Source of the DNA: a virus
Taxonomy: Duplodnaviria > Heunggongvirae > Uroviricota > Caudoviricetes
Virus record (IMG/VR): IMGVR_UViG_2541047755_000010
Strand: one strand, 5' to 3'
DNA: 32,432 nt
The stretch's first letter is position 1; the number at the start of each line of letters is the position of its first letter. Positions 1 to 32,432 of the stretch are shown one piece after another. The notes below the pieces were generated by a model. It saw only the letters and a program-made list of their open reading frames with translations. It had not been told where the DNA came from and did no database searches. The translations under genes were made by a program, and so were the position numbers.

Positions 1-17
1 AACACGAGCAAACAGAT

Positions 18-50
18 AAAAAAGGGCCAGCCAATTGGCCAGCCCTTCTT
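18..50 (-). terminator. GC-rich hairpin followed by a U-run on the minus-strand transcript; putative rho-independent terminator downstream of the 203..1132 gene
   Basis: Plus strand reads aaaaaagggccagccaattggccagcccttctt; on the minus strand this is a GC stem (AGGGC...GCCCU around a GGCCAAUUGGCU core) followed by UUUUUU. Confidence 0.45.
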
Positions 51-202
51 AACAGGATGTCGCTTAAGCGAAACCTTAGTTAAGACGCTTTTACATGATA
101 CCATTGATAAACATGCATTTTTCATTATAAACAGTTAGTTATATGTATCACTAGTGTAGTCAAGTGCAGCCATAAACATGCTGTGTGGGCAGATTGTGGA
201 CA

Positions 203-1132
203 CTACTTATTTCCCTGTCCAATCTTACCCGCAACTGCCTCGGTAAGCTTTACTAAGGTTTCAAGTTCATTTTTGTCTAATTTTCTTGCTTCAATAATTT
301 CAGTAGTCTGCCCTGATTCTAGTTTTCCAACTCTTGAGCTAAAATTAATTTTATCCAGAAGGTCTATCATATCGATATCTTTCTGGCTAGCCATTACAAG
401 CTTTATAATGGCATAGCTTTCCTCACGTGAACGTTTTATTGCCTCGTAATAGCGAAACTCATCCATCGTAACCCGATATTGCTTCAAAAAGAAAAATGCG
501 ATTAACTCCAAGAAAATCAACACGCCAAAATTAGGGAGAAGATACATTACCTTGGTTACCGCATCATCCTTAGCATCAATTACATGTGATTGAGAATAGA
601 AGAAACCTAATCCAACTATTGCAAAACAAACACCGACTAATAAATAAAGACTACCGCGAGAATATATGTTTTTCGCAAGACCTTCAGAGCTATTAATCAA
701 ACCTTTAAGATAAAAATCCAGAGATTCATCTTCATCAGCAGCAGCCCTTTCCTCTTGAGCCTTCTTGAGTAGTTTTATCTCATTTATAATATCGACAATA
801 TTAAACATCGATGATTTGTCGACTGAATCACTCCCTGTAATTCTCATAAACATTCTTTGGATTGGAGACACACCATAGATAATGGTGTAAACGATTACAA
901 ATGACACTGCGAATATTGACCTGATAAAGCTCGGCAAATGTGTAAGATCTGCTCTCGCACTGGGAAATAAATAATAAAAGGTTGAGTCTAATATCCCTGT
1001 AGCAAAAATTACATTTGCAACTAGAAAGACTGCACCTATCTCAACTAAATTATAAAAACCACGAGTGCGTACCCTAATGACTTTGGCCTCGGTCATTCTT
1101 GGAGGTGTTTCGATGGTTGGCTCACTCATCAT
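203..1132 (-). CDS. hypothetical multi-pass membrane protein (309 aa), AT-rich accessory gene overlapping the 3' end of int
   Basis: Intact ORF with at least four hydrophobic helix-length segments (e.g. LVEIGAVFLVANVIFATGIL, IRSIFAVSFVIVYTIIYGV, LYLLVGVCFAIVGLGFFY, VMYLLPNFGVLIFLELIAFFFL) and charged coiled-coil-like linkers. Its start at 1132 overlaps the int stop at 1122-1124. Visibly AT-rich compared with the phage backbone. Confidence 0.6.
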   Translation of the reverse strand: MMSEPTIETPPRMTEAKVIRVRTRGFYNLVEIGAVFLVANVIFATGILDSTFYYLFPSARADLTHLPSFIRSIFAVSFVIVYTIIYGVSPIQRMFMRITGSDSVDKSSMFNIVDIINEIKLLKKAQEERAAADEDESLDFYLKGLINSSEGLAKNIYSRGSLYLLVGVCFAIVGLGFFYSQSHVIDAKDDAVTKVMYLLPNFGVLIFLELIAFFFLKQYRVTMDEFRYYEAIKRSREESYAIIKLVMASQKDIDMIDLLDKINFSSRVGKLESGQTTEIIEARKLDKNELETLVKLTEAVAGKIGQGNK

Positions 1133-2159
1133 ATAATCCTGTTAAATTAGAAATAGGGTTAAGAGTTACAGCTTCTTCTAAATGATCTGGTGCAAAATGA
1201 GCGTATCTCATGGTTTCCCTAATGTTAGAATGGCCCAAGATTCGTTGCAGTACTAAAATGTTCCCACCATTCATCATAAAGTGACTCGCAAATGTATGAC
1301 GTAACACATGCGTTTTTTGCCCTTCAGCTAACTCTATATCGGTCAGAGCGAGCATTTTCTTGAACTCCTGATAGCAGGGGTGGAACATTTTTCCCTGTAA
1401 AGGAGCCAACTCGTCATATAGCCACCGAGGGATCGGTACTGTACGATTCTTCTTTCCCTTCGTTTTAGTGAAAGTCAACTTGTGGGGTGAAAGCTGTGAA
1501 CGAGTAAGACGCTCGGCCTCGCTCCATCGAGCACCAGTCGCTAAGCACACTTTGACGATACGGGTTAAATAAATTTTCCCGTATGACTCACAAGCATTGA
1601 GCACTTCGCGAATTTGAGGCTGGGTAAGCCAAGACATTTCTTTTTCGGCTTCTTTGAAAACTCGCACACCTTCGAGAGGATTTGGCAGACTCCACTCACC
1701 CAAGCGCTTCAGCTCATTGAAAACAGCTTCGAGGTACTGTTGTTCCCGGTTCACAGTCACAGGTTTCGCAATCCACTTTTCAGAATTTGCGTGATAGCCA
1801 TTGTCGATTTCACCCTTGAGACGTTTATCCCGATAATGGGCGAAATCTTTGGCGGTAAGCTGGGTAGCGATTGGGTCGCCAAGACCCCGGCAAACAATGT
1901 GCAGTTTGGCCAATCGCGATTTGCTGGCAGCGAGCGACTGGCCATGGAGGTTATGCCACAGCTCAATCAGTTCACTCAAACGTCGACGGTCTTCCTTCTC
2001 ACCCATCCACGGCTTATTTTGTGCCTCTTCTCGGTAATACTGCTCGAAGGCAACGGCTTCACCTTTGGTTGAAAACTTCTTACGCACGCGGCGACTTTCA
2101 GCCCCGTCGACGCGGAAATCACAAAGCCATTCACCCGATGTCAGTTTTTTAACACTCAT
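1122..2159 (-). CDS. int: tyrosine site-specific integrase (P2/186 family)
   Basis: 345-aa ORF with the C-terminal catalytic region typical of tyrosine recombinases (…THVLRHTFASHFMMNGGNILVLQRILGHSNIRETMRYAHF…). Lies immediately downstream of cI on the same strand, as in 186. Confidence 0.93.
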   Translation of the reverse strand: MSVKKLTSGEWLCDFRVDGAESRRVRKKFSTKGEAVAFEQYYREEAQNKPWMGEKEDRRRLSELIELWHNLHGQSLAASKSRLAKLHIVCRGLGDPIATQLTAKDFAHYRDKRLKGEIDNGYHANSEKWIAKPVTVNREQQYLEAVFNELKRLGEWSLPNPLEGVRVFKEAEKEMSWLTQPQIREVLNACESYGKIYLTRIVKVCLATGARWSEAERLTRSQLSPHKLTFTKTKGKKNRTVPIPRWLYDELAPLQGKMFHPCYQEFKKMLALTDIELAEGQKTHVLRHTFASHFMMNGGNILVLQRILGHSNIRETMRYAHFAPDHLEEAVTLNPISNLTGLYDE

Positions 2160-2163
2160 ATCG

Positions 2164-2742
2164 TTAGCTAGATTTCGTCAGGCTTACCAGCACCATGCCA
2201 ATACACTTAACCTCAGAAACTGAGCATTGAAAATCGGCATCAGCGTTGCTGACTTTTATTCTGTTCCCCGGGATCCTTGCAACGTCATAGACATCATGAT
2301 CCCCGTCGATACTGAGCATCCATCGCCCATTTGCTATATCAGTCATATCAAAATCAACTATCCAGGACTGCTGGCCTTTTACTATGTAATTGGGGTGCGT
2401 CGCCTCAGTAGAAAAGAGGTTAGCATCAACAATCCAATGACCGTTTTCCTGCAGCTTACCTGCAACAATATCCAATCGGTCTAATGTTTTCATTTCGCCA
2501 TTAGTATGGTCTGCATCAAACTTGTTCCCCTTCCCTGTTGCCAACCAACGTAAAGACACCCCAGTGTCCAAAGCGCATGCAACAACAACATCCCCGGGGA
2601 AAAAATTACGCCGAACCCAAGTGCTGATTGTTCCCGATGACAGCTCATGCAAGTCACCGAGTTGTTTTTGCATGGTGAAGCCATACGCATCAAGGATGCG
2701 CTGCAGCACTGCTTTTCCACCCTCTAACTCATCCAATTTCAT
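2164..2742 (-). CDS. cI: 186-type CI immunity repressor (192 aa from the internal ATG; ORF extends to 2781)
   Basis: N-terminal HTH-like segment (LQRILDAYGFTMQKQLGDLHELSSGTISTWV) plus a C-terminal domain. Divergent from apl across a short switch region and 5 bp upstream of int. Start at 2742 is chosen because the M1 codon at 2781 would sit inside the opposing promoter/operator. Confidence 0.8.
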   Translation of the reverse strand: MKLDELEGGKAVLQRILDAYGFTMQKQLGDLHELSSGTISTWVRRNFFPGDVVVACALDTGVSLRWLATGKGNKFDADHTNGEMKTLDRLDIVAGKLQENGHWIVDANLFSTEATHPNYIVKGQQSWIVDFDMTDIANGRWMLSIDGDHDVYDVARIPGNRIKVSNADADFQCSVSEVKCIGMVLVSLTKSS

Positions 2743-2774
2743 CTTAAAAATCCGAGTTATCGCGAAAATCCAAA

Positions 2775-2803
2775 TTGACATCTCGCTTTTTCGAGATAAG
2801 ATT
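2775..2803 (+). promoter_or_regulatory. candidate lytic promoter (pR-like) with an operator dyad in the spacer
   Basis: TTGACA at 2775-2780, the perfect dyad atctcgctttttcgagat at 2780-2797, and a TAAGAT -10-like hexamer at 2797-2802, all upstream of apl. A direct repeat of TCTCGCTT follows at about 2803. Confidence 0.5.
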
Positions 2804-2867
2804 CTCGCTTGAATTTAAAAATGCACGCCAATGCACCAAACCAACTAGTAACCGGAGATGATTACTT

Positions 2868-3092
2868 ATGACTCCACAAATTGCAATCCCGTCCGGCGCG
2901 GATCTCATGACTTATGACGAATTTGCTGAATGCTACGGCTACAGCATTCGCACTGTAAAACAGATGGTTGCTGATGGAGATCTCCTCCTGATGCCCCGTA
3001 AAAAAGACGGTGGTGCTGCGCGTATCAATATGGTTGCCTTCCGTGCTCGACTCTTGGCTCAGGGCCTTAATTGCCGCTATGTGGCAGCCTAA
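2868..3092 (+). CDS. apl: Apl/Cox-like excisionase and switch regulator (74 aa)
   Basis: Small HTH-type ORF with a GGAGA RBS, first gene of the rightward operon opposite cI, followed by cII as in 186. Confidence 0.7.
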   Translation: MTPQIAIPSGADLMTYDEFAECYGYSIRTVKQMVADGDLLLMPRKKDGGAARINMVAFRARLLAQGLNCRYVAA

Positions 3093-3127
3093 GAAACTCG
3101 ATTATTTAAGATAGCGAGGGAAAATAC

Positions 3128-3637
3128 ATGTTTGATTTTCAAATTTCCAAACATCCCCACTATGACGAAGCGTGCCGGGCTTTCGCGCAGCGTCACAATA
3201 TGGCGAAGCTGGCCGAGCATGCGGGTATGAATGTTCAGACGTTACGTAACAAACTTAACCCGGAACAGCCTCACCAGTTCACACCGCCTGAGTTATGGCT
3301 GCTGACTGATCTGACCGAAGACTCAACCCTCGTTGATGGCTTTCTGGCGCAGATCCATTGTCTACCTTGTGTGCCGGTTAATGAGTTGGCTAAAGATAAA
3401 TTGCAGTCCTATGTCATGCGCGCAATGAGCGAACTCGGCGAACTGGCGAACGGTGCTGCATCTGATGAACGCCTGACCTCTGCTCGTAAACACAACATGG
3501 TTGAAAGCGTTAACGCCGGTATTCGCATGCTGTCATTGTCGGCGCTGGCGTTACAGGCTCGCCTCCAGGCTAACCCGGCAATGTCGAGCGTCGTCGACAC
3601 CATGACCGGCATTGGCGCAACATTCGGTTTGGTATGA
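3128..3637 (+). CDS. cII: CII-like lysogeny establishment regulator (169 aa)
   Basis: 169-aa ORF with a GAGGGA RBS, directly after apl. Size and position match 186 CII; N-terminal HTH-like region (…MAKLAEHAGMNVQTLRNKLN…). Confidence 0.7.
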   Translation: MFDFQISKHPHYDEACRAFAQRHNMAKLAEHAGMNVQTLRNKLNPEQPHQFTPPELWLLTDLTEDSTLVDGFLAQIHCLPCVPVNELAKDKLQSYVMRAMSELGELANGAASDERLTSARKHNMVESVNAGIRMLSLSALALQARLQANPAMSSVVDTMTGIGATFGLV

Positions 3638-3644
3638 GGTACCT

Positions 3645-3872
3645 GTGCTGAAAAATGAACCTTCATTCGCTTCTCTGCTCGTTAAGCAAAGTCCCGGCAT
3701 GCATTACGGTCACGGCTGGATTGCGGGGAAAGATGGCAGGCGCTGGCATCCGTGCTGCTCACAGTCCGAATTATTAAAAGGGCTGGAAACAAAGCCGCCG
3801 AAGTCGTCAGGCTTTTTAATTGTTCGTATTGTCCACTTTATTATTAAAGGGATTAAACATGTCACGCGATGA
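3645..3872 (+). CDS. hypothetical early protein (fil/dhr position); start uncertain (GTG 3645 or ATG 3612)
   Basis: ORF 3612..3872 overlaps the cII 3' end; GTG at 3645 follows a GAGGT motif. Positional analogy to 186 early genes only. Confidence 0.35.
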   Translation: MLKNEPSFASLLVKQSPGMHYGHGWIAGKDGRRWHPCCSQSELLKGLETKPPKSSGFLIVRIVHFIIKGIKHVTR

Positions 3873-4059
3873 ATTAAGAATTGTTTTAGGAGCCATGATT
3901 CCGAATATGGAAGACGGTTTTGAAATTAAAACTCGCGACGGTGCAATACTTCGGGTTGACCCTGAGTGGGAATGCTGCAAAGAGTTTAAGGATGGCCTGA
4001 AAGCTGAAATTATCAGCCAGTTGAAAAGTAAACCTGCCGTTGTATTTGGCTATAGCTAA
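3859..4059 (+). CDS. hypothetical early protein (66 aa)
   Basis: ATG at 3859 preceded by AAAGGGA; ORF in the early operon. Confidence 0.45.
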   Translation: MSRDELRIVLGAMIPNMEDGFEIKTRDGAILRVDPEWECCKEFKDGLKAEIISQLKSKPAVVFGYS

Positions 4060-4128
4060 TTAATCACAATTAATTATCTGGCGTAAACCCGCCGGGCATT
4101 TTATTGCCCGAAATCAGGAGAGTTAGTT

Positions 4129-4356
4129 ATGCGCAATACCGAACCCCGTAGTTTTAATACTGATAGTGACGCGCTGGCCGTGCTGCTGACAGATGCCAAA
4201 AAAGAAGAACGCAAAGACCGTGCACTCGCCGTTTCAATCCGTCTTGAGGCGCTGGCTATCCATATAACCAAAGAAGGCATGAACGGCAAAGAAGCCGCTG
4301 AACTGCTGCGCCGTGAAGCCACCCGCTTTGAAAACGAATCTCAGGAGTTGCACTAA
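4129..4356 (+). CDS. hypothetical early protein (75 aa)
   Basis: ATG with an AGGAGA RBS; charged helical small protein. Confidence 0.5.
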   Translation: MRNTEPRSFNTDSDALAVLLTDAKKEERKDRALAVSIRLEALAIHITKEGMNGKEAAELLRREATRFENESQELH

Positions 4357-4577
4357 TGGCCGATGTTATGGATGGAGTACAGGAGCGCGAACAAGCCGAG
4401 CGCGAGCGCCATATCAACAACGCGCGCAGCCGTATTACTGTGCCTTCTCGTTTCCTCTGTGAAGTATGTGACGTACCAATTCCGGAAGCCCGACGAATCG
4501 CGCTTCCGGGTGTGGGCTTGTGCGTGACCTGCCAGCAAATCGCCGAGCTTAAATCAAAGCATTATCGGGGGATATGA
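4356..4577 (+). CDS. DksA/TraR-family C4 zinc-finger protein (73 aa)
   Basis: CxxC…CxxC spacing (CEVCDVPIPEARRIALPGVGLCVTCQ) near the C-terminus, characteristic of TraR/DksA-like phage proteins. ATG overlaps the upstream stop (TAATG). Confidence 0.7.
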   Translation: MADVMDGVQEREQAERERHINNARSRITVPSRFLCEVCDVPIPEARRIALPGVGLCVTCQQIAELKSKHYRGI

Positions 4578-4578
4578 A

Positions 4579-6726
4579 TTGGCTGTTCAATTCGCGTTTC
4601 CGTGGAATGCTCCACGGTCGGCAATAGCCAGTCCATATCTTACCTACGACCAACAGTATCGCCGCGACCGTATGCTCGCGGCTTTGCTGCATGCTAGAAA
4701 GGTGCTTTCCCTCCAGCCCGAGTGTGTACGTTTTGACGTTTATCGCACTGCTGCGGTGCTGGAGCAAAATCAGGGCAGTCAACGAGCCAATGCTTTTTTA
4801 ATAAGCTTCTGCAAAAAGGCATTGCCGCGTTTTGAACTGGTCGCAAAAAAATACGAGTGTACCGGTATTAACAGCAACGTATCAGCCGCTGTTTTCGGTT
4901 GTCATTTCGATACTCAGCTTATGCAATATCTGGCGTCTCGCATGGTCAACATAGTCGCCAGATACAACCGACTCCCGGATATGGCACGCGCCGACATCGA
5001 CCTGCTGGCTGCTGATATCGCCGATTTTATCCGTGCAGAGTTAGTCAACATTGACGATTCTGACATGTGTGAACTGGAGACATTAAATGCCTGGTATATG
5101 CATGCTGGTTTCATCACTCAGCAATTCAGGATAATGCCACCAGAGTGGGAACGGTCGCGGGATAAATATTGGGATCAGGATAAAGTCGCTCCAGCAATTG
5201 CCCGTATGTTTTCGGAAAAATGGTGGCGTGGCCGTCTGCGTCGCATTGCGGCTGCGTGGCGCGAACACCTGCAAATCGCAATCGGAAATGTCAGTAAGAA
5301 AAAACATGTCTACGCGAGTAAAAACTGCGTGACAGACTGGCGTGAACAGAAGCGCCGGACGCGCGAATTTCTCAAAGGTCTGGAGCTTGAAGACGAAGAC
5401 GGCAACCGTATCAGCCTGATTGAAAAATACGATGGTTCAGTCGCTAACTCTGCGATTCGACGCTGTGAGCTTATGACCCGCATTCGTGGGTTTGAAAATA
5501 TCTGCAATGAGCTCGGTTATGTTGGTGAGTTTTACACCCTGACCGCACCGTCTAAATATCACGCCACGACAAAGGCAGGCTACCGTAACACCAAATGGAA
5601 TGGATCCAATCCATCCGATACGCAATGTTATCTCACTGGCCTGTGGGCACGCATTCGCGCAAAACTCCACCGTGAAGACATTCGTATTTTCGGGATCCGC
5701 GTTGCAGAGCCTCACCATGACGGGTGCCCTCACTGGCATATGCTGATGTTTATGCTCCCGGAGGACGTCGATACCGTTCGTGGCATTATTCGGGACTACG
5801 CATGGCAAGAAGATTTTCACGAACTCAAAAGCGATAAAGCCAAAAAAGCACGTTTCCACGCAGAAGCCATTGATCCGGAGAAAGGCAGCGCAACCGGCTA
5901 CGTCGCGAAATACATCTCGAAAAATATCGACGGTTACGCTCTTGATGACGAAACCGATGACGAAAACGGTGAACTGTTGAAAGAGACAGCCCCCGCCGTT
6001 TCAGCATGGGCGGCGCGCTGGCATATTCGTCAGTTTCAGTTTATCGGTGGTGCACCAGTGACTGTTTATCGTGAATTGCGTCGCCTTGCAGATACCGAGA
6101 CCGCGCACGGTCTAAGTGTTGAGTTTGCGGCTGTCCATGATGCCGCCGATGCCGGTGATTGGGCTGGCTATGTTAATGCGCAGGGCGGTCCGTTTGTCCG
6201 TCGCGATGATTTGCAGGTGCGTACGCTTTATGAACCGCGCACCGAGTTTAACCAGTATGGTGAGGAAACTGTCTGCATTCGTGGTGTGTACGACTCCACC
6301 GTTGGTGTTGGCACTCCGATTTTAACCCGGCTCACGCAATGGAAAATTGTTCCGAAGCGTGCCGTTGATTTGGCCGTTGACGTTAAGGACGGCTTCGCCG
6401 TCCCTTGGAGTTCTGTCAATAACTGTACGGGAAGCGAAAGCGATCCACCGGAACTCGATTTATCAAAACCCCTGAGTCGACGTGAAAGGCGAGAGCTGAC
6501 GAACCGAATCAGGAAACCAAAGCCACCTAAGAGGCCGAAATTTATCCACGGAACAGATGAGCAAAGTGCTCCGATAGAAAAAACTATCGACGAGATCCGT
6601 CTGACAACCGGCATTACCATCAGCCGGGGAGAAGCCCTGCACCTGATAGCAGGTGGCAAAAGTTGTATTAACGGTAAATGGTTGCGTGGAACGTCCAAAG
6701 GTGAAATTTTCTCCGCAGCGCCATAG
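4579..6726 (+). CDS. A: rolling-circle replication initiation protein (P2 gpA family)
   Basis: About 715-aa ORF containing the PHHDGCPHWHMLMF metal-binding motif and the YVAKYISKNIDGYAL catalytic-tyrosine region typical of P2 A. The 4579 codon is TTG; the exact start is uncertain. Confidence 0.9.
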   Translation: MAVQFAFPWNAPRSAIASPYLTYDQQYRRDRMLAALLHARKVLSLQPECVRFDVYRTAAVLEQNQGSQRANAFLISFCKKALPRFELVAKKYECTGINSNVSAAVFGCHFDTQLMQYLASRMVNIVARYNRLPDMARADIDLLAADIADFIRAELVNIDDSDMCELETLNAWYMHAGFITQQFRIMPPEWERSRDKYWDQDKVAPAIARMFSEKWWRGRLRRIAAAWREHLQIAIGNVSKKKHVYASKNCVTDWREQKRRTREFLKGLELEDEDGNRISLIEKYDGSVANSAIRRCELMTRIRGFENICNELGYVGEFYTLTAPSKYHATTKAGYRNTKWNGSNPSDTQCYLTGLWARIRAKLHREDIRIFGIRVAEPHHDGCPHWHMLMFMLPEDVDTVRGIIRDYAWQEDFHELKSDKAKKARFHAEAIDPEKGSATGYVAKYISKNIDGYALDDETDDENGELLKETAPAVSAWAARWHIRQFQFIGGAPVTVYRELRRLADTETAHGLSVEFAAVHDAADAGDWAGYVNAQGGPFVRRDDLQVRTLYEPRTEFNQYGEETVCIRGVYDSTVGVGTPILTRLTQWKIVPKRAVDLAVDVKDGFAVPWSSVNNCTGSESDPPELDLSKPLSRRERRELTNRIRKPKPPKRPKFIHGTDEQSAPIEKTIDEIRLTTGITISRGEALHLIAGGKSCINGKWLRGTSKGEIFSAAP

Positions 6727-6875
6727 CTTCAGGCAAAGCCTAGGGAAATCCTTAATCGTGTTGCGGTGCTGGCAGAAACATCAAAACTCACAGGTGATTA
6801 ATTTACATCCATATCATGTACATACAACACCTACCCGATTCACTTTTTCTCTTCCCATCTTTTGCCAATACGTTA

Positions 6876-6895
6876 TACTGTATAAATACACAGTA
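6876..6895 (+). promoter_or_regulatory. LexA (SOS) box overlapping a promoter
   Basis: tactgtataaatacacagta matches the CTGT-N8-ACAG LexA consensus and lies about 20 bp upstream of the GGGAGGGA RBS of the 6916 ORF. Confidence 0.8.
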
Positions 6896-6915
6896 ATCCT
6901 ATTGGGAGGGATTTC

Positions 6916-7098
6916 ATGGTTGGGAAACATTTCAGCCGAACGCAGCAAAAGTGGGCTTGTGTGCAATTTATCGCCGAGATATCTCTTATTGCCAACTGCA
7001 AACCGGCAGATTTGAAGCTGGCACTAACTCTGATTGCCGGCCTAGCTAACAGCGAAAGCGACGAAGAAAAAGACGAAATTTTCTATAAGGCTGAATAG
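6916..7098 (+). CDS. SOS-inducible small protein, Tum-like antirepressor candidate (60 aa)
   Basis: Strong RBS (GGGAGGGA) and ATG directly downstream of the LexA box. Position after the replication gene matches 186 tum, but the ORF is much shorter than 186 Tum as I recall it. Confidence 0.5.
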   Translation: MVGKHFSRTQQKWACVQFIAEISLIANCKPADLKLALTLIAGLANSESDEEKDEIFYKAE

Positions 7099-7379: not shown

Positions 7380-7398
7380 GGCGTGGCGGGGATAGCAT
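7380..7398. other. candidate cos site (cohesive-end sequence)
   Basis: ggcgtggcggggatagcat is 18 of 19 identical to the 186 cohesive-end sequence as I recall it (GGCGTGGCGGGGAAAGCAT; P2 is GGCGAGGCGGGGAAAGCAC). Lies in a non-coding stretch between the tum-like gene and the accessory cassette. Confidence 0.55.
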
Positions 7399-7469
7399 TG
7401 CGCGCCAGAGCAATACAATACATAATTGCTTCGCTCCGTGTATAACATATTCATAGCAAGAGGGATTCT

Positions 7470-9136: not shown

Positions 9137-9144
9137 AACATTTT

Positions 9145-9180
9145 CATCCAGAGTCATTATTATAATGGACTCTGGATTTT
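9145..9180. terminator. bidirectional rho-independent terminator between the cassette and the portal gene
   Basis: ccagagtc…gactctgg stem followed by attttttg; sits between convergent genes (cassette on plus, Q on minus). Confidence 0.7.
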
Positions 9181-9192
9181 TTGCATTCATAC

Positions 9193-11990: not shown

Positions 11991-12030
11991 AAAACCTCGC
12001 CGTGATGAGTACACGGCAAGGCTAAAGATT

Positions 12031-20411: not shown

Positions 20412-20415
20412 ATTT

Positions 20416-22632: not shown

Positions 22633-22668
22633 AATTCAGCATCATATTTGGTACTTCAGTAGGGTTCC

Positions 22669-24366: not shown

Positions 24367-24392
24367 TTCTCCCAAACCAACGTTTAAGAAAA
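24367..24392. repeat. right recombination site (inverted partner of the 22520-22545 site)
   Basis: ttctcccaaacc-AA-cgtttaagaaaa; its reverse complement ttttcttaaacg-TT-ggtttgggagaa matches the left site in 11 of 12 positions of the right half-site with the same TT core. Confidence 0.7.
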
Positions 24393-25025: not shown

Positions 25026-25089
25026 CAAATAGCCGCATACAGGCGTAAACCAGACAATATCACTCACCTCAACTAACGGAGTTAAACGG

Positions 25090-26277
25090 ATGAGTGATTA
25101 TCATCACGGTGTCGAGGTCGTCGAAATTAACGACGGCACCCGCACAATCTCGACGGTATCAACGGCGGTCGTTGGCATGGTCTGCACAGCCAGTGATGCT
25201 GACGCCGGGGCTTTCCCTCTCAATGAGCCGGTGCTGATTACCAACCCACAAAGCGCCATCGCAAAAGCCGGTACTAAAGGTACCCTGGCAAAATCCTTAC
25301 AGCTCATCGCTAACCAGTCAAAACCGGTTGTCGTTGTTGTGCGTGTCGCGGAGGGTACCGGCGACGGCGAAGAGGCACAGGCGCAAACCATTTCTAACAT
25401 CATCGGCACCACGGATGAGAATGGCAAATATACCGGGATGAAAGCGCTGTTAACGGCGAAAGCGGTCACCGGCGTGAAGCCACGTATTCTCGGTGTGCCG
25501 GGGCTCGATACTCAGGAGGTGGCGACCGCGCTTGTCTCCGTGGCTCAGAAGCTGCGCGCTTTCGCCTATGTCAGCGCGTGGGGCTGTAAAACCATTGCTG
25601 ACGTTATCGCCTACCGCGAAAACTTCAGCGCCCGTGAGCTCATGATTATCTGGCCTGACTTCCTCGGGTGGGATACCACGGCCAACGCGACCACAACCAG
25701 TTATGCAACAGCGATCGCGTTGGGACTGCGCGCAAAAATCGACAATGACACAGGCTGGCATAAAACCCTGTCAAACGTCGGCATCAATGGCGTCACCGGT
25801 ATCAGTGCGTCGGTCTTCTGGGATTTGCAGGAATCTGGCACTGATGCCGACCTGCTGAATGAGGCCGGTGTTACGACGCTGATTCGTGCCGATGGTTTCC
25901 GCTTCTGGGGTAACCGTAATTGCTCCGATGACCCGCTGTTTCAGTTTGAGAACTACACCCGCACCGCACAGGTCATAGCCGACACAATAGCCGAGGGGCA
26001 TATGTGGGCGAACGATAAGCCCATCACCGCGACGTTGATTCGCGACATTATCGACGGCATCAACGCGAAATTCCGCGAGCTGAAAACCGGCGGTTACATC
26101 ATCGATGCGACGTGCTGGTTTGACGAAGAGGCCAACAGTAAAGAAACCCTGAAAGCCGGGAAACTGTTTATCGATTATGACTATACGCCGGTGCCGCCAC
26201 TCGAACACCTGACCTTACGCCAGCGCATTACTGATAAATATCTGGCGAATCTTATCTCGTCCGTCAACAGCAAATAA
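25090..26277 (+). CDS. FI: tail sheath protein (P2 gpFI family)
   Basis: 395-aa ORF (P2 FI is 396 aa) followed by the tail tube gene. Confidence 0.9.
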   Translation: MSDYHHGVEVVEINDGTRTISTVSTAVVGMVCTASDADAGAFPLNEPVLITNPQSAIAKAGTKGTLAKSLQLIANQSKPVVVVVRVAEGTGDGEEAQAQTISNIIGTTDENGKYTGMKALLTAKAVTGVKPRILGVPGLDTQEVATALVSVAQKLRAFAYVSAWGCKTIADVIAYRENFSARELMIIWPDFLGWDTTANATTTSYATAIALGLRAKIDNDTGWHKTLSNVGINGVTGISASVFWDLQESGTDADLLNEAGVTTLIRADGFRFWGNRNCSDDPLFQFENYTRTAQVIADTIAEGHMWANDKPITATLIRDIIDGINAKFRELKTGGYIIDATCWFDEEANSKETLKAGKLFIDYDYTPVPPLEHLTLRQRITDKYLANLISSVNSK

Positions 26278-26289
26278 GGAGCCTGACAA

Positions 26290-26808
26290 ATGGCATTACC
26301 GCGCAAGCTCAAACTCATGAACCTGTTTATCGATGGGGTGAGTTATCTCGGCGTCGTGCAGTCCGTCACGCTGCCGAAATTAACCCGCAAGCTCGAGAAC
26401 TATCGCGGCGGCGGGATGAATGGTTCGGCACCGGTCGACCTCGGCCTCGATGACGATGCGCTGTCGGCTGAAATCTCTCTCGGCGGCTTCCCCGATGACG
26501 CTATCTGGTCGTTATACGCTGCCACCGGCGCGGCCTCCGTACCGCTACGTTTTGCCGGGTCTTACCAGCGTGATGACACCGGCGAGACCGTGCCGGTTGA
26601 GGTTGTTCTCCGTGGCCGTCAGAAAGAAATCGACCTCGGTGAAGCCAAACAGGGCGAAGACACCGAGTCGAAAATCGCTCTCGCGTGTACCTATTTCAAG
26701 CTGACGATGAATGGCTCGGAACTGGTGGAAATCGACACCGTGAACCTCATCGAAAAAGTGAACGGCACCGACATGCTCGAGGCGCACCGACAAAATATCG
26801 GCCTGTAA
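26290..26808 (+). CDS. FII: tail tube protein (P2 gpFII family)
   Basis: 172-aa ORF, same length as P2 FII; AAGGAG RBS. Confidence 0.9.
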   Translation: MALPRKLKLMNLFIDGVSYLGVVQSVTLPKLTRKLENYRGGGMNGSAPVDLGLDDDALSAEISLGGFPDDAIWSLYAATGAASVPLRFAGSYQRDDTGETVPVEVVLRGRQKEIDLGEAKQGEDTESKIALACTYFKLTMNGSELVEIDTVNLIEKVNGTDMLEAHRQNIGL

Positions 26809-26870
26809 TTTATGCCCCGGTCAGCATGGCTGGCCGGGCATCCTGAAACCAGAATTTAACGAGAAATATC

Positions 26871-27143
26871 ATGGATAAAACTAACGAAAATATCGTCACT
26901 CTGATTAAACCCATTAAGCGCGGTGAGCAGGTTATTACCGACGTCACCCTGTTAAAACCGTGTGCCGGAACCCTTCGCGGTGTCAGCCTGGCATCTGTCG
27001 CAAACTCTGACGTCGATGCGCTGATTAAAGTGCTGCCGCGCATGACCATGCCGTCGCTGACCGAGCAGGAAGCCGCCGCACTGGAGCTGCCCGACCTGCT
27101 GTCGTTTGCCGGTAAGGTGGTCGGTTTTTTGTCACCGAGTTAG
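26871..27143 (+). CDS. E: tail assembly chaperone (P2 gpE family); an E+E' fusion is predicted by -1 frameshifting up to 27304
   Basis: 90-aa ORF ending just after the slippery run GGTTTTTTG (27123-27131). The -1 frame continues open to 27304 and encodes …TELGGVTFPQKLSVDDLMADIAVIFHWSPSDLYPMSLTELVNWREKALQRSGNTNE, overlapping the start of T. Confidence 0.8.
   Translation: MDKTNENIVTLIKPIKRGEQVITDVTLLKPCAGTLRGVSLASVANSDVDALIKVLPRMTMPSLTEQEAAALELPDLLSFAGKVVGFLSPS
27123..27131 (+). other. programmed -1 ribosomal frameshift slippery site (E to E+E')
   Basis: T6 run (G GTT TTT TG) 4 codons before the E stop, with an open -1 frame of about 58 further codons. Confidence 0.7.
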
Positions 27144-27296
27144 GCGGCGTAACCTTCCCGCAAAAACTCTCGGTCGATGACCTGATGGCTGACATAGCGG
27201 TAATTTTCCACTGGTCGCCATCAGACCTGTATCCCATGAGCCTGACCGAACTCGTCAACTGGCGCGAAAAAGCGCTACAGCGAAGCGGAAACACGA

Positions 27297-29726
27297 ATGA
27301 GTAATAACCTCAAACTCGAAGTGCTGCTGAAAGCTGTCGACCAGGCGACCCGACCCTTTAAAGCGATCCAGACGGCGAGCAAATCGCTGTCTGGCGATAT
27401 CCGCACGACTCAGCAATCCCTGCGTGATTTGAATGGTCAGGCATCGAAAATCGACGGTTTTCGCAAAACCAGCGCACAACTGGCGGTAACCGGACAGGCA
27501 CTGGAAAAGGCAAAACAGGAAGCCGCCGAGCTGGCGGTGCAGTTTAAAAACACGGAACGGCCAACGGCGGCACAGGCCAGAGTGCTGGAATCAGCAAAGC
27601 GTTCGGCTGAAGGGTTACAGGCAAAATATAACAGCCTCACCCAATCGGTGAAGCGGCAACAGACCGAGCTCGGCAAAGCGGGGATTAATACGCGCAATCT
27701 GTCGAATGATGAAAGCCGCCTGAAAAACTCTATCAATGAAACTACCGCACAACTTAACCGCCAGCATGAAGCACTGGCGCGGGTCAGCGCGCAACAGGCA
27801 AAACTCAGCGCAGTACAAAAACGCTATCAGGCAGGAAAGGCACTGGCTGGAAATGCGGCATCGATGGGCGCTGCCGGGATAGGCATGGCAACGACCGGAG
27901 CGCTTGCCGGTGTTGCACTGATGAAGCCCGGTTATGATTTTGCTCAGAAAAACTCTGAGTTACAGGCCGTTCTCGGTGTCGGTAAAGACTCAGCTGATAT
28001 GGTGGCGCTCCGCAAACAGGCGCGCCAGCTCGGTGACAACACCGCCGCGTCGGCTGATGATGCTGCCGGTGCTCAGATTATTATTGCAAAGGCTGGCGGC
28101 GATGCTGCGGCTATTCAGGCCGCTACCCCCGTAACACTCGATATGGCGCTCGCAAACCGTCGAACGATGGAAGAGAACGCCGGGTTATTGATGGGGATGC
28201 GCTCTGCCTTCCAGCTTTCAAACGATAAGGTCGCCCATATCGGTGATGTTCTGTCGATGACGATGAACAAAACCGCCGCCGACTTTGACGGCCTGAGTGA
28301 TGCGCTGACTTATGCCGCGCCGGTGGCGAAAAATGCCGGGGTCAGCATCGAAGAAACAGCCGCAATGGTCGGCGCACTGCATGACGCCAAAATTACGGGA
28401 TCGATGGCGGGTACGGGGAGCCGTGCCGTATTAAGTCGCCTGCAGGCTCCAACGGGCAAAGCGTATGACGCCATTAAAGAGCTCGGCGTCAAAACGGCTG
28501 ATGGTAAGGGGAACACACGTCCAATATTTACCATCCTGAAAGAAATGCAGCGGAGTTTTGATAAAAACAACCTCGGCACCGGCCAGCGTGCCGAATATAT
28601 GAAAACCATTTTCGGTGAAGAGGCCAGCTCGTCGGCTGCGGTACTCATGACCGCTGCCTCGAGCGGGAAATTAGACCAGCTTACCGCTTCCCTTAAAGCA
28701 TCGGATGGCAAAACCGCTGAGCTGGTGAAGGTCATGCAGGATAACCTCGGCGGCGATTTTAAAGAGTTTCAGTCTGCGTATGAAGCGGTAGGAACCGACC
28801 TGTTTGACCAGCAAGAGTCATCATTAAGAAAGCTGGTACAAACGACGACAGGGTATGTATTGAGGCTCGATAGCTGGATCCAAAAGAACAAATCTCTTGC
28901 CACCACGCTGGGTGTCATTACGGCGGCAGCTGTCGGTATTGTGGGGATGATTGGTGCCATTGGCCTTGTATCGTGGCCGGTAATTACTGGCATTAACGCC
29001 ATCATTTCGGCGGCTGGTGCGCTTGGTGCGGTCTTTACGACAATCAGTGGCGGGGTCATTGCGGCTATTGGTGCTATTACGTGGCCTGTCGTGGCGGTAG
29101 CGGCGGCTGTTGTCGCTGGCGCGCTGCTTATCCGTAAATACTGGGAGCCTGTCAGCGCATTCTTTGCCGGTGTGGTCGAGGGGCTCATGAGTGCCTTTGC
29201 GCCGGTCGGGGAAATGTTCGCCCCGCTGGCACCCATTTTCGACGGTCTCGGCGAAAAACTTCGCGGCGTCTGGCAGTGGTTTAAAGACCTGATAGCGCCG
29301 GTGAAAGCGACTCAGGACACGCTCAACAGTTGTCGTGATGTTGGGGTTATGTTCGGTCAGACGCTGGCCGATGCGCTGCTGATGCCGCTTAACGCCTTTA
29401 ACAAGCTGCGAAGCGGGATTGACTGGGTGCTCGAAAAACTCGGCATTATCAACAAAGAATCCAGCTCACTTGACCAGACAGCGGCGAAAGCCAATGCAGC
29501 GACGCAGAACGGTTACAGCCCGGCAATCAGCGCATACAACAGCTATCAGCCGGTCACGGCACCCGCCGGTAAAACCTACATCGACCAGAGTCGGCCAATC
29601 TATCAAATCACCGTGCCGGGCAATGGTATGCCGGGAGATCGGTTGGGTAATGATTTGCAGGATGCATTAGAAAAGTATGAGCGCGAGAAGCGCGCCAAAG
29701 CCCGCGCAAGCATGATGCATGACTAA
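27297..29726 (+). CDS. T: tail tape measure protein (P2 gpT family)
   Basis: 809-aa ORF with an N-terminal coiled coil and hydrophobic Gly/Ala-rich central segments typical of tape measure proteins; position after E/E'. Confidence 0.9.
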   Translation: MSNNLKLEVLLKAVDQATRPFKAIQTASKSLSGDIRTTQQSLRDLNGQASKIDGFRKTSAQLAVTGQALEKAKQEAAELAVQFKNTERPTAAQARVLESAKRSAEGLQAKYNSLTQSVKRQQTELGKAGINTRNLSNDESRLKNSINETTAQLNRQHEALARVSAQQAKLSAVQKRYQAGKALAGNAASMGAAGIGMATTGALAGVALMKPGYDFAQKNSELQAVLGVGKDSADMVALRKQARQLGDNTAASADDAAGAQIIIAKAGGDAAAIQAATPVTLDMALANRRTMEENAGLLMGMRSAFQLSNDKVAHIGDVLSMTMNKTAADFDGLSDALTYAAPVAKNAGVSIEETAAMVGALHDAKITGSMAGTGSRAVLSRLQAPTGKAYDAIKELGVKTADGKGNTRPIFTILKEMQRSFDKNNLGTGQRAEYMKTIFGEEASSSAAVLMTAASSGKLDQLTASLKASDGKTAELVKVMQDNLGGDFKEFQSAYEAVGTDLFDQQESSLRKLVQTTTGYVLRLDSWIQKNKSLATTLGVITAAAVGIVGMIGAIGLVSWPVITGINAIISAAGALGAVFTTISGGVIAAIGAITWPVVAVAAAVVAGALLIRKYWEPVSAFFAGVVEGLMSAFAPVGEMFAPLAPIFDGLGEKLRGVWQWFKDLIAPVKATQDTLNSCRDVGVMFGQTLADALLMPLNAFNKLRSGIDWVLEKLGIINKESSSLDQTAAKANAATQNGYSPAISAYNSYQPVTAPAGKTYIDQSRPIYQITVPGNGMPGDRLGNDLQDALEKYEREKRAKARASMMHD

Positions 29727-29737
29727 GGAGACTGATT

Positions 29738-30202
29738 ATGATGCTGGCATTAGGTATGTTTGTTTTTATGCGTCAGACGCTGCCCTACCAGAGCATGCAG
29801 CGCAGCGCGGATTATAGCTGGGCGTCAAACTCTCGCATCGGGAAGCGTGACGCTTTTCAGTATCTCGGCGAGGGGGAAGATAAAATCACCCTGAGCGGTG
29901 ACCTGTATCCTGAGCTGACCGGCGGTAAGCTCACGATGCTGGCGCTTTATGCAATGGCTGAACAGGGGCGCGCATGGCCGCTTATCTCTGGCTCAGGCTG
30001 GATTTACGGGATGTTTGTTGTCAGTAATGTCTCGGAGACCGGCACGGTATTTTTTGAGGATGGGACGCCACGAAAAATCAGCTTCACCCTGTCACTGACC
30101 CGTGTCGATGAGTCGCTCGCCGCGGTGTATGGCGATATTGGAAAACAGGCCGAAAGTCTGGTCGGGAAAGCTGGCGATCTGCTGTCGATGGTGGGGGCGT
30201 AA
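29738..30202 (+). CDS. U: tail protein (P2 gpU family)
   Basis: 154-aa ORF with an AAGGAG RBS between T and D. Confidence 0.85.
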   Translation: MMLALGMFVFMRQTLPYQSMQRSADYSWASNSRIGKRDAFQYLGEGEDKITLSGDLYPELTGGKLTMLALYAMAEQGRAWPLISGSGWIYGMFVVSNVSETGTVFFEDGTPRKISFTLSLTRVDESLAAVYGDIGKQAESLVGKAGDLLSMVGA

Positions 30203-30204
30203 TC

Positions 30205-31377
30205 ATGCTGGATATTATCACCGGCGCGGGTGCCACGCTGACGCCCGACTTTATGCTGACACTGGAAAGCAAAGATATCACCGGCAATATCAGTGACCGG
30301 CTGATTAACCTCTCGATGACGGACAATCGGGGTTTTGAGGCCGACCAGCTCGACATCGAGCTCGACGATACTGACGGTCTGGTCGCATTGCCGATTCGCG
30401 GTGCGGTGCTGTCGCTGTATCTCGGGTGGAAAGGTTTCTCTCTGGTCAGCAAGGGGCGATTTACCGTCGATGAGGTAGAGCACCGGGGGGCGCCGGATAC
30501 GGTAACCATTCGCGCCCGGGGTGCGGATTTTCGCGGGACGCTTAATTCCCGTCGTGAGGAGTCATGGCATGACACCACGCTCGGCGCAATCGTCAGCTCG
30601 ATAGCTGAGCGGAACAAGTTAACGGCCAGCGTCACTGATTCTCTTGCGGGGATCCAGATTCCGCATATCGACCAGTCTCAGGAATCCGACGCCGTTTTCC
30701 TGACTCGCCTCGCAGAACGCAACGGCGGTGCGGTCTCAGTGAAAGCGGGTAGATTGCTGATGCTCAAAGCGGGAAGCGGTACCACTGCCAGTGGAAAAGC
30801 TATTCCTCAAATTACCATCCAGCGCGGTGACGGTGACCGGCATCAGTTTGCCATTGCCGACCGTGGCGCTTACACCGGCGTAACCGCTAAGTGGCTGCAC
30901 ACTAAAGACCCGAAACCGGCGAAACAAAAGCAGACAGTGAAGCTGAAACGTAAGCCCAAAGAGCAACACCTCCGGGCGCTACAGCACCCGAAAGCAAAAC
31001 CAGTGAGCAGTAAAGTCACGGCCAAAAAGCAAAAAGAGCAGGAAGCCCGCGAGGGTGAATACATGGCCGGTGAGGCTGACAACGTTTTCGCGCTGACGAC
31101 CATTTACGCGACAAAGGCGCAAGCGATGCGTGCAGCTCAGGCGAAGTGGGATAAATTGCAGCGTGGGGTTGCGGAGTTCTCCATTATGTTAGCGACCGGC
31201 CGCGAGGATATTTACCCCGAAACGCCGGTCAGGGTCTCAGGCTTTAAGAGCGTTATAGACGAGCAAGCATGGATAATCAGCAGGGTGACCCATAATCTCG
31301 GTGGGAATGGCTTCACAACGGCTGTAGAGCTTGAGGTGATGCTTTCGGATGTAGAATATGACACCGACGAATCTTGA
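30205..31377 (+). CDS. D: late control gene D protein / tail protein (P2 gpD family)
   Basis: 390-aa ORF (P2 D is 387 aa) preceding ogr. Confidence 0.88.
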   Translation: MLDIITGAGATLTPDFMLTLESKDITGNISDRLINLSMTDNRGFEADQLDIELDDTDGLVALPIRGAVLSLYLGWKGFSLVSKGRFTVDEVEHRGAPDTVTIRARGADFRGTLNSRREESWHDTTLGAIVSSIAERNKLTASVTDSLAGIQIPHIDQSQESDAVFLTRLAERNGGAVSVKAGRLLMLKAGSGTTASGKAIPQITIQRGDGDRHQFAIADRGAYTGVTAKWLHTKDPKPAKQKQTVKLKRKPKEQHLRALQHPKAKPVSSKVTAKKQKEQEAREGEYMAGEADNVFALTTIYATKAQAMRAAQAKWDKLQRGVAEFSIMLATGREDIYPETPVRVSGFKSVIDEQAWIISRVTHNLGGNGFTTAVELEVMLSDVEYDTDES

Positions 31378-31453
31378 TTATACAAACAAAACTTGCAAAT
31401 GTAAGATTCAAGTTTATTATCCCCCTCAAGTCAGCAAGGAGAGGGAAGAAATT

Positions 31454-31672
31454 ATGATGCACTGTCCGCTATGTCAGGATGCAGCACACGCACGATCAAG
31501 CCGGTACCTGAGCACTGAAACGAAAGAGCGCTACCACCAGTGCCAGAACATCAACTGCGGTTGCACTTTCGTCACCCACGAGAGCCTTGCTCGTTTTATC
31601 GTGAAGCCAGGAGAAATTGAACCCGCCCCACCCCACCCGTCTAAATACCAACAACATCAGCTCTGGCTTTAA
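31454..31672 (+). CDS. ogr: zinc-finger late gene transcriptional activator (Ogr / 186 B family)
   Basis: 72 aa from the ATG at 31454 (AAGGAGAGGG RBS); MMHCPLCQDAAHARSSRYLSTETKERYHQCQNINCGCTF carries the CxxC…C…C zinc-binding pattern of P2 Ogr. The ORF track start at 31358 is not supported by an RBS. Confidence 0.9.
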   Translation: MMHCPLCQDAAHARSSRYLSTETKERYHQCQNINCGCTFVTHESLARFIVKPGEIEPAPPHPSKYQQHQLWL

Positions 31673-31677
31673 ATCAA

Positions 31678-31706
31678 AGGCCTGCTTTGCAGGCCTTCTT
31701 GTATCA
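31678..31706. terminator. bidirectional rho-independent terminator between ogr and the convergent AT-rich gene
   Basis: aaggcctgc-ttt-gcaggcctt perfect stem-loop flanked by A/T-rich runs on both sides. Confidence 0.7.
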
Positions 31707-31709
31707 AAC

Positions 31710-32432
31710 TTAGATTGGTAATGAAAAAGCTATCGCCTTGCAGATATGTTGCTTTGTTAACGCAGGATGTGTTGAAGCAAAAAGCGATAAAAAGCTTTTA
31801 GCTTCAACCGAATCATCATTAAGCGAAATATTATCTTTGATGAATGGATGAAGTGCGATTCCAGCGCTCATAGATAACGGCACATAGTTGATGAATATAT
31901 CTTCTTTTGTGAGACCTAGCTGGTTTGCTTGTGCTTCAAATGAATTAGCATCTAAATAATCACGTATACGTTCTTTGGCCTCTGGTCGGAGTCTCGATTC
32001 TTGACGCGGCAGAGAAAGCATCTTATCAATATCTCCCCATGAGATAGGAACCTCAAAATAGCCACCACCTTCTTCCTCTGGAGGTGCCGGGAAATTCACA
32101 TAAAAATAGTTTTTTTGCTGTGTAGGGTCGTTCATGGACTGACGATGATAGTTATAAATACTTCTAATACGGTTGGCCTTGTTATGATGCCGAGCATTTC
32201 GAATAACAAGCATCATTAATAATTCAGGTTTCAAATACCAGTCAGGCTCTAATCCATTGCTTTGCATGTTGTCATACAAATTATGAAAAGCATTAAGTTG
32301 TGTATTCAGGCCCGATTCTAAATTGCCAATTGCTTCAGCACGATCAATAGCCAACAAACGCTGTAGTGACCAGTTAGACTCTAATAAAACCCGAAAGGCC
32401 TGTGCAAGATCTTCAAAAGAGTGGGAAAGCAT
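31710..32432 (-). CDS. hypothetical protein (at least 240 aa; the N-terminus may lie beyond the window edge), AT-rich
   Basis: Long minus-strand ORF convergent with ogr and running to the window edge; AT-rich compared with the phage backbone; no recognisable motif by eye. Confidence 0.55.
   Translation of the reverse strand: MLSHSFEDLAQAFRVLLESNWSLQRLLAIDRAEAIGNLESGLNTQLNAFHNLYDNMQSNGLEPDWYLKPELLMMLVIRNARHHNKANRIRSIYNYHRQSMNDPTQQKNYFYVNFPAPPEEEGGGYFEVPISWGDIDKMLSLPRQESRLRPEAKERIRDYLDANSFEAQANQLGLTKEDIFINYVPLSMSAGIALHPFIKDNISLNDDSVEAKSFLSLFASTHPALTKQHICKAIAFSLPI

Follow-up and report, generated by a model that had tools for sequence, protein, structure and literature searches.

The stretch of DNA analyzed here, 32,432 nt long and referred to below as the window (IMG/VR virus record IMGVR_UViG_2541047755_000010), carries a short piece of host DNA, an attachment site, a 186/PSP3-type early region, a cos site and the late operons of a tailed phage, with AT-rich blocks of genes at four of its junctions and a tail-fibre cassette at a fifth (Table 1). 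By sequence comparison, it is a complete-looking Escherichia coli prophage of the P2/186 family (Peduoviridae), inserted at the 3' end of rplS. Proteins of the capsid, packaging, tail and baseplate genes share 61–82% amino acid (aa) identity with those of P2, 186 and PSP3 in colinear order, and the modules Q-P, O-N-M-L, V-W-J-I-H and FI-FII-E-T-U-D follow the order of P2. The early region is 186/PSP3-like, with cII 93% and A 86–88% identical. Marker domains of the Peduoviridae were found with Pfam, namely Ogr_Delta (3.8e-21), Phage_GPA (2.4e-128), and Int_N together with Phage_integrase. The prophage is carried at >=99% identity by 13 of the 5,426 complete E. coli genomes in RefSeq; the copy in strain JNE070796 (contig L014) is inserted between yfiB and rplS and, outside the invertible segment described below, differs from the window by 10 mismatches and one 1-nt gap. 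Since attL lies at the left end of the window and attR lies about 207 nt past its right end (43639–43652 in L014), both terminal low-GC genes are inside the phage genome.

The initial annotation had noted by eye that sharp drops in G+C content (GC) coincide with breakpoints of gene order relative to P2 and 186 at five junctions, namely int-att, cos-Q, S-V, H-FI and after ogr. On quantitative analysis, the compositional contrast proved to be real. In sliding intervals of 400 nt, GC ranged from 0.305 to 0.627, and the standard deviation among non-overlapping 400-nt intervals was 0.079, compared with 0.025 expected of a homogeneous sequence. Likelihood segmentation divided the window into seven GC segments. 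GC at third codon positions was 0.53–0.74 in the late genes and 0.28–0.34 in the open reading frames (ORFs) of the islands. Alignment to P2, 186, PSP3 and Fels-2 delimited four islands, whose edges coincide with the alignment breaks; GC was 0.547 in DNA aligning to these phages and 0.403 in DNA aligning to none of them (circular-shift permutation p<=2e-4). With refined edges, islands 1–4 together make up 15.6% of the window, at 33–40% GC compared with 49–57% in the backbone. All five junctions are indeed breakpoints, and four of them show a sharp drop, the exception being H-FI, where GC is patchy (0.40–0.53; 0.45 over the whole segment) and the dip is lost on segmentation. Nor is AT-richness found at every mosaic joint, because the lysis-cassette swap (15755–16543) is a breakpoint of gene content at which GC stays at 0.52–0.60; its holin has no counterpart in P2, 186 or PSP3, and its lysozyme is Fels-2-like (59% aa).

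Table 1. Features of the window, in order of position, followed by its GC segments.
Feature	Position	Strand	GC	Remarks
Host DNA, yfiB-rplS intergenic region	1–75			Identical to the empty site of K-12 as far as the att core
Native bidirectional terminator hairpin (yfiB/rplS)	18–47			In host DNA
attL core TTAGTTAAGACGCT	76–89			From comparison of attL, attR (L014) and K-12 attB
Island 1 (int-attL)	91–1132		0.368	Refined edges
orfL1	203–1132	-		309 aa; predicted membrane protein with four transmembrane segments (4-TM); island 1
186/PSP3-type early region	1122–7098			
int	1122–2159	-		
cI	2164–2781	-		
apl/cox	2868–3092	+		
cII	3128–3637			
fil, dhr, then DUF2732 protein, DksA-like protein	between cII and A			Early region
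Replicase A	4579–6726			
tumA-like	6916–7098			
cos GGCGTGGCGGGGATAGCAT	7380–7398	+		19 nt; right ends of 186 and PSP3 align up to 7379
Island 2 (cos-Q)	7400–9192		0.332	Refined edges
cq1	7470–8453	+		327 aa; candidate RexA-like protein; island 2
cq2	8450–9136	+		228 aa; 4-TM membrane partner, putative RexB-like role; 4-nt overlap with cq1
Hairpin terminator	9148–9175			Common to cq2 and convergent Q
Late block: Q, P (-); O, N, M, L, X, holin, lysozyme, lysB/C, R, S (+)	9193–17968	-/+	0.567	
Island 3 (S-V)	17903–19373		0.363	Refined edges
sv1	18006–19349	+		DUF4062/NIR TIR-like NADase family, Swarozyc type; island 3
pV-like late-promoter activator site (predicted)	19358–19380	+		Resembles the annotated P2 pV site and the empty-site sequence
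V, W, J, I and constant N-terminal part of H	19426–22519	+		H starts at 21925
Invertible segment	22520–24391			Between inverted 26-bp hix/gix-like sites, 22520–22545 and about 24366–24391
Serine DNA invertase (Resolvase + HTH_7)	24447–25025	+		Pfam E=5.7e-51 and 1e-12; 79% aa identical to Fels-2 invertase
pF/pJ-like activator site (predicted)	25000–25034			Closes the H-FI block; overlaps the invertase 3' end
FI, FII, E/E', T, U, D, ogr	25090–31672	+	0.549	
ogr	31454–31672	+		
Island 4 (ogr-attR)	31673–32432		0.397	Refined edges
Hairpin after ogr	31677–31697			
orfR1	31710–32432	-		240 aa; island 4; convergent with ogr across the hairpin
GC segment	1–1340		0.375	Likelihood segmentation
GC segment	1341–7440		0.493	Likelihood segmentation
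GC segment	7441–9315		0.327	Likelihood segmentation
GC segment	9316–17780		0.572	Likelihood segmentation
GC segment	17781–19390		0.373	Likelihood segmentation
GC segment	19391–31640		0.540	Likelihood segmentation
GC segment	31641–32432		0.396	Likelihood segmentation

The contents of the four islands vary among relatives: the cos-Q slot is occupied differently in P2, 186, PSP3, Fels-2 and the prophages of E. coli strains A15 and 2020N08-094, and the island proteins have no counterpart in the four reference phages. The latter two prophages, whose late regions are 92–95% identical and which have their att sites at tRNA-Ile, allowed a comparison slot by slot. At int-att, where the window has orfL1, A15 encodes a 415-aa protein and 2020N08-094 a 487-aa protein. 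At A-Q, cq1 and cq2 of the window are replaced by a 186-like tum, orf97 and a 220-aa protein in A15 and by an acyltransferase in 2020N08-094. The S-V slot holds sv1 in the window, the same DUF4062 gene in A15, and a 361-aa gene on the opposite strand in 2020N08-094, and the ogr-att slot holds orfR1, a 215-aa protein and nothing, respectively. In an all-against-all BLASTP comparison, the alternative slot genes were unrelated to one another and to orf30, fun(Z), tin and old of P2. Those of the sister prophages have a GC of 0.34–0.40 compared with 0.57 in the backbone, and the accessory genes of P2 are similarly low (orf30, 0.34; fun(Z), 0.33; tin, 0.33; old, 0.35; P2 late operons, 0.53–0.57). 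The S-V flanks of this lineage were recovered from 54 complete E. coli genomes, of which 15 carry sv1 and most carry another gene. One, PRO_A-1496, is empty and has 68 nt between S and V. When this empty site was aligned to the window, the 1,471 bp of island 3 were found in place of 64 bp; the final ~22 codons of S come from the island, and its right end falls inside the pV activator site. Judged from these sequences, islands 1–4 are exchangeable cargo at hotspots.

Each island occupies a gap between operons, bounded by hairpins, late-promoter activator sites, cos or att. Island 1 adjoins attL and lies downstream of int, with which the lysogenic operon ends; island 2 lies between cos and the hairpin that it has in common with convergent Q; island 3 is flanked by the end of the O operon and the pV-like activator site; and island 4 lies between the hairpin after ogr and attR. 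A strict TGT-N12-ACA pattern yielded no late-promoter site at the junctions, and the sites in Table 1 were recognized by their similarity to annotated activator sites of P2 and 186. Terminator-like sites were only modestly more frequent than in shuffled sequences, and only individually inspected hairpins were used as evidence.

The protein with the clearest family assignment among the cargo is that of sv1. It matched DUF4062 (PF13271, E=1.9e-28), the only significant Pfam family among the cargo proteins, and its residues 18–224 align to KpSwz (PDB 10wc, 11cq and 11cv; E=3.5e-46), including the helical stalk or coiled stretch. The catalytic glutamate is kept, as E97 of sv1 in a TE motif (462-aa numbering; E82 counted from Met16) pairs with E97 of KpSwz. 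According to three 2026 preprints, DUF4062/NIR is a TIR-like NADase, and Swarozyc is a single-protein abortive infection system in which a C-terminal auxiliary domain binds the phage portal and switches on NAD+ hydrolysis. On this alignment, sv1 is probably a member of the DUF4062 defence family with a sensor domain and trigger different from those of KpSwz. Among GenBank phages, the only match was a 26% identical protein of an Acinetobacter jumbo phage, so close copies of sv1 are confined to prophages. The 462-aa ORF starts from a TTG and includes 15 codons ahead of the likely true ATG at 18006 (17961–18006); a '16-C' construct was used in the KpSwz paper, suggesting the same over-extended start in database entries of the DUF4062 family. 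If sv1 does lie within a late transcription unit of the phage that carries it, one may ask how self-triggering is avoided in the lytic cycle.

The cq1 family is tiny (17 clusters). The 4-TM partner is conserved beside its homologs in Aeromonas, phage Perceval and an Acinetobacter phage, and the hydrophobic segments of cq2 are arranged 2+2, as in these partners and in RexB. In Aeromonas (contigs L021–L023, 4001–5661), the pair directly follows a Zn-ribbon/Toprim/DUF927 primase (GC 0.59) of the P4-alpha type, typical of P4-like satellites. In the lambdoid phage Perceval, a distant cq1 homolog and a 'transmembrane protein' come directly after cI, which is the rexAB slot, and in the Acinetobacter phage the order is repressor, one small ORF, cq1 homolog and small partner, with a copy labelled 'DefenseFinder protein'. 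The occurrence of homologs in these settings indicates that the module uses satellite, P2-like and lambdoid slots. The profile of cq1 had no sequence match in the PDB. Its structural model appears to have the two-domain organization of RexA, a split globular domain plus a dimerization domain, with an RdgC-like fold. We therefore read cq1/cq2 as a pair that may function like RexAB, Rex-like by predicted fold, 4-TM partner and context and not by sequence, with no membership of the Rex sequence family implied. The same pair, cq2 plus cq1, is listed as system #72 of the P2 hotspot in Table S5 of Rousset et al. (2022), with 58 occurrences, no function and the remark '4 TM in protein 1'.

The two terminal genes belong to families of their own. 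The start of orfL1 overlaps the stop of int by 11 nt on the same strand (1122–1132), so orfL1 probably closes the cI-int lysogenic operon, and the arrangement suggests that it is translationally coupled to int and expressed from that operon. Such a position after int is what would be expected of an exclusion gene expressed in the lysogen. Its family comprises 117 clusters of ~300-aa 4-TM proteins, an identical protein occurs on 832 contigs, and no Pfam, PADLOC or NCBIfam family was matched. The orfR1 protein belongs to a conserved unnamed family, in which an IRNARHHN motif runs across 30 diverse homologs, with R78, N79, H82 and H83 invariant and R81 nearly so. A HEPN-type R-x4-6-H motif is present, and an assignment as a HEPN-domain RNase was considered on this ground and not accepted. 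The homolog in Vibrio parahaemolyticus (L018/L019, ~5001–5723) lies within a long array of single small genes, spaced by regular spurious ORFs of ~30 codons, that resembles a chromosomal integron cassette array. This setting suggests that the orfR1 family is a self-contained mobile single-gene function.

Taken together, we consider it very likely that the window is a P2/186 prophage whose inter-operon slots hold AT-rich cargo from a mobile gene pool, and that H-FI is an invertible cassette, blended in the available sequence. The composition, the breakpoints, the variability in relatives, the empty site, the near-identical block shared with A15 and the domain and fold assignments bear on this directly. 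The int-attL, cos-Q, S-V and ogr-attR slots each contain 0.8–1.8 kb of cargo of 33–40% GC, which would be drawn from a pool that is AT-rich irrespective of host. The cargo would most likely consist of superinfection-exclusion or anti-phage genes expressed to the benefit of the lysogen, with cq1/cq2 acting as a sensor plus 4-TM membrane pair like RexA/RexB, and sv1 aborting infection by NAD+ depletion once its C-terminal domain senses a phage protein. The slots would turn over because changes there spare all essential functions, and because related phages exchange cargo by homologous recombination in the conserved flanking genes. A bolder version is put forward only tentatively, as we hold it to be possible but somewhat less likely than not: that four independently exchangeable anti-phage loci sit in one 32-kb prophage and that two of them are new, namely a sequence-orphan RexAB-like branch (cq1/cq2) moving between P2 hotspots, P4-like satellites and lambdoid immunity regions, and the widespread ~240-aa orfR1 family, whose confidently predicted fold has no match to solved or viral structures.

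Several observations weigh against the functional part of this interpretation. A defence role of all four loci, and their expression in the lysogen, are what we infer. The cargo proteins had no significant match in PADLOC or NCBIfam and matched only families of 'unknown function' in PHROGs, and orfL1 and orfR1 were left without assignable function after family searches. No sequence similarity was detected between cq1/cq2 and RexA/RexB (hhalign probability 0.2%; BLASTP E=14), and the Rex-like assignment is drawn from a moderate-confidence model (pLDDT, the predicted local distance difference test, 66.8). The C-terminal ~240 aa of sv1 did not align to the ~115-aa HTH/winged portal-binding domain of KpSwz. 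Generic sigma-70 promoter-like sites were not enriched over shuffled sequences and were not used as evidence, so that expression of the cargo in the lysogen is read from gene arrangement only. These points give some room to the view that the cargo consists of lysogenic-conversion genes unrelated to defence, of membrane, virulence or metabolic function, and that low GC marks only foreign origin. The acyltransferase at the A-Q slot of the sister prophage fits such a view, as do the partition systems and toxins also found in the hotspot by Rousset et al. (2022) and the two terminal genes with no defence-family match. We nevertheless regard it as unlikely, since sv1 retains its catalytic residue and falls in a family whose defence role has been validated by experiment, cq1/cq2 resemble RexAB in fold, partner and context, and the slots are documented defence hotspots.

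How cargo is exchanged was addressed by comparison with the A15 prophage. Identity to the window was 89–93% over 9–14.5 kb, rose to 99–100% over 15001–20000 (L through V, with sv1 in the middle of the block), was 86–97% over about 20–26.5 kb, and was again 99.6–100% over 27501–31000. The two phages have different integrases and att sites (rplS in the window and tRNA-Ile in A15) despite these near-identical blocks. The blocks indicate recent homologous exchange on a kilobase scale, as far as can be judged from sequence identity, and since one of them encloses sv1 together with its flanks, cargo appears to move in kilobase blocks via homologous recombination in the conserved flanking genes. Homologous recombination is demonstrated for this one exchange and would be the general route; initial entry into the slots may have occurred by illegitimate recombination or by another route. 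The profile offers a clean example of cargo and flanks moving by homologous recombination between phages with different att sites. The initial annotation had proposed repeated acquisition of cargo at recombination-permissive sites. Repeated acquisition is upheld at four junctions, by the unrelated low-GC genes in the sister prophages and the empty S-V site, and fails at H-FI. The idea of special permissive sites was not borne out, as the evidence points instead to gaps between transcription units, with cargo swapped along with kilobases of flanking backbone.

Delivery of the islands by dedicated mobile elements or site-specific systems targeting the junctions, such as insertion sequences, transposons or integron-like cassettes, would be in keeping with the base-level sharpness of the island edges, with the Vibrio homolog of orfR1 in its apparent cassette array, and with cq1/cq2 beside a P4-alpha-type primase in a satellite-like element. 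No transposase, terminal inverted repeats, flanking direct repeats, target duplications or attC-like elements were found at the island edges, though, and a direct-repeat search of the whole window detected only short repeats at chance level, with no duplications flanking the islands. Further, the sv1 island takes the place of 64 bp, including the end of S, with no duplication, and the 5-kb near-identical block covers both cargo and flanks. This route is accordingly judged improbable, and exchange by homologous recombination in the flanking genes is preferred.

The low GC belongs to the cargo families and not to the host. Homologs of cq1/cq2 have a GC of 0.37/0.33 in Aeromonas, beside flanks of 0.59, and 0.35/0.375 in phage Perceval, and rexA/rexB of lambda have 0.40/0.425. 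It is hardly credible that the low-GC blocks are ancestral backbone of drifted or selected composition, for example through H-NS silencing. Such a case does exist in the window, in the GC dip at 3800–4200 (0.42), which corresponds to fil/dhr, is low in GC yet conserved with 186 (dhr is 94% aa identical, and 186 dhr itself has a GC of 0.40), and by sequence comparison is 186-type backbone and not variable cargo. The island genes, by contrast, are absent from the four reference phages, their places are taken by unrelated genes or by nothing in prophages 92–95% identical, their homologs stay low in GC in hosts of 41–59% GC, and the empty S-V site and the alternative cargo contradict an ancestral origin.

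The fifth junction, H-FI, is of a different kind. From its layout and sequence, this stretch is an invertible tail-fibre host-range cassette of the Fels-2/Mu type, with its invertase, and not acquired cargo. In the window, H ends 30 codons past the left crossover site, the longest ORF in the segment is <=91 aa, and both H extensions contain in-frame stops. The L014 cassette has identical length and is intact, encoding a 355-aa H with a Collar domain, the assembly proteins tfa (200 aa) and tfa' (146 aa), and an alternative, gp53-like tip of 130 aa, and every one of these proteins aligns to the window twice, once per orientation, gapless. Read in its two orientations, the L014 segment shows 1,409 differing sites, at which the window carries the base of orientation A 711 times, that of orientation B 698 times and any other base never; the choices alternate with a mean run length of 2.05, as in independent coin flips, with no base preference and no indels. 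This split means that 22539–24373 is a per-position consensus of a mixed population of about 1:1 and not a real molecule. The ORFs called there are therefore meaningless, and the presence of both orientations implies that the invertase was at work in the culture that was sequenced. Two 353-nt inverted arms (22680–23032 and 23880–24232), exactly symmetric about the midpoint of the segment, were considered as alternative fibre tips and rejected as a by-product of the blend. In two draft assemblies, the sequence breaks shortly after the crossover site and runs on into another, intact tip. In the true segment, taken from L014, GC is 0.466 and the variable tips dip to 0.415–0.45, so the dip at H-FI is mild and due to the host-range module. 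That the segment is a genuinely decayed, pseudogenized tail-fibre region, as the in-frame stops in both H extensions and the lack of an ORF >91 aa might suggest, has next to no probability, because real decay would bring novel bases and indels, whereas all 1409 differing sites carry one of the two orientation bases and indels are absent. The case is a caution for genome scans, in which a mixed-orientation consensus yields fake low-GC, stop-riddled 'pseudogenes' and a fake centred inverted repeat.

Some further observations concern the backbone and the host site. Comparison with the K-12 empty site gave an att core of 14 bp, TTAGTTAAG(A/G)CGCT, which overlaps the rplS stop codon. The integration target consists of the last four codons of rplS plus the stop, the attR copy carries one synonymous change (CGT to CGC), and a phage-borne hairpin terminator ~40 nt downstream of rplS replaces the native yfiB/rplS terminator. 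The cos region is conserved in 1051 E. coli genomes. The major capsid protein N has 401 aa, compared with ~357 aa in P2 and 186; its extra C-terminal ~57 codons (14079–14249; GC 0.637) align to none of the four reference phages and are present in the identical E. coli copies. Replicase A of L014 (15580–17802) is annotated by PGAP as a pseudogene with an internal stop. The ORF in the window has 715 aa and covers 93–99% of the A proteins of 186 and PSP3 (694 and 708 aa), so that A of L014 may have been called a pseudogene in error. No tRNA was found by a tRNA search of the window, and no family by an Rfam search.

AT-rich cargo at fixed slots is ordinary for P2-like phages, and the idea is long established and already published. 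The TO-region, the Z-region and the orf30 region were on record by 2007–2010 as sites of horizontally acquired genes in P2-like phages, as described in a 2010 study of such phages of Burkholderia and in the earlier work that it cites. Rousset et al. (2022) defined the cos-adjacent hotspot between gpA and gpQ from 18,150 E. coli loci, and a 2026 paper in Nucleic Acids Research lists further hotspots, one from integrase to att, one from integrase to gpA and others among the tail genes, along with Z/fun. This prophage and its cos-proximal cargo can already be found in public tables. The phenomenon itself adds little, as these slots have already been mined systematically for defence systems. As far as the hotspot literature was searched, it does not contain the Rex-like reading of system #72, the S-V DUF4062 gene with a swapped sensor, the filled ogr-attR slot or the two orphan families. 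The analysis provides testable hypotheses for two uncharacterized loci, cq1/cq2 as a putative Rex-like exclusion pair and sv1 as a putative Swarozyc-type NADase with a new sensor domain, and nominates orfL1 and orfR1 as candidates from documented hotspots.

Compared with the known P2-like hotspots (TO tin/old, Z/fun and orf30), the window is alike in its slots (A-cos-Q, S-V, G/H-FI and int-att), its low-GC cargo and its high turnover, and island 2 is a small locus of the kind defined by Rousset et al. (2022), ~1–5 kb between gpA and gpQ beside cos, with high turnover. It differs in that the ogr-attR slot is also filled and that cargo is present in four slots of a single phage. Next to cos, the cargo is found on the Q side, as is STM2723.1 of Fels-2, whereas old/tin of P2 lie on the A side. 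The likeness of cq1/cq2 to RexA/RexB of lambda would lie in the fold and in the downstream, overlapping 4-TM partner; RexB has 144 aa whereas cq2 has 228 aa, and cq1/cq2 lie at cos-Q whereas rexAB of lambda lie beside the repressor in the immunity region. Like the Swarozyc systems of the DUF4062/NIR/Evangelion family, sv1 would be a single gene combining an effector with a C-terminal auxiliary domain on a mobile element; unlike KpSwz, it is found in a P2-like prophage, where it occupies the S-V slot and reads in the direction of the late operon. The H-FI cassette shares with Fels-2 the layout of H, invertible G/G'/H', invertase and FI, and with the Fels-2 H/G, Mu G (Gin) and P1 C (Cin) segments a constant N-terminal part of H, a crossover site of 26 bp within this gene, two opposed units of a tip plus an assembly gene, and an adjacent Resolvase/HTH_7 invertase. 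Nothing substantive distinguishes it from these known invertible segments, its sole peculiarity being the blended consensus in the window.

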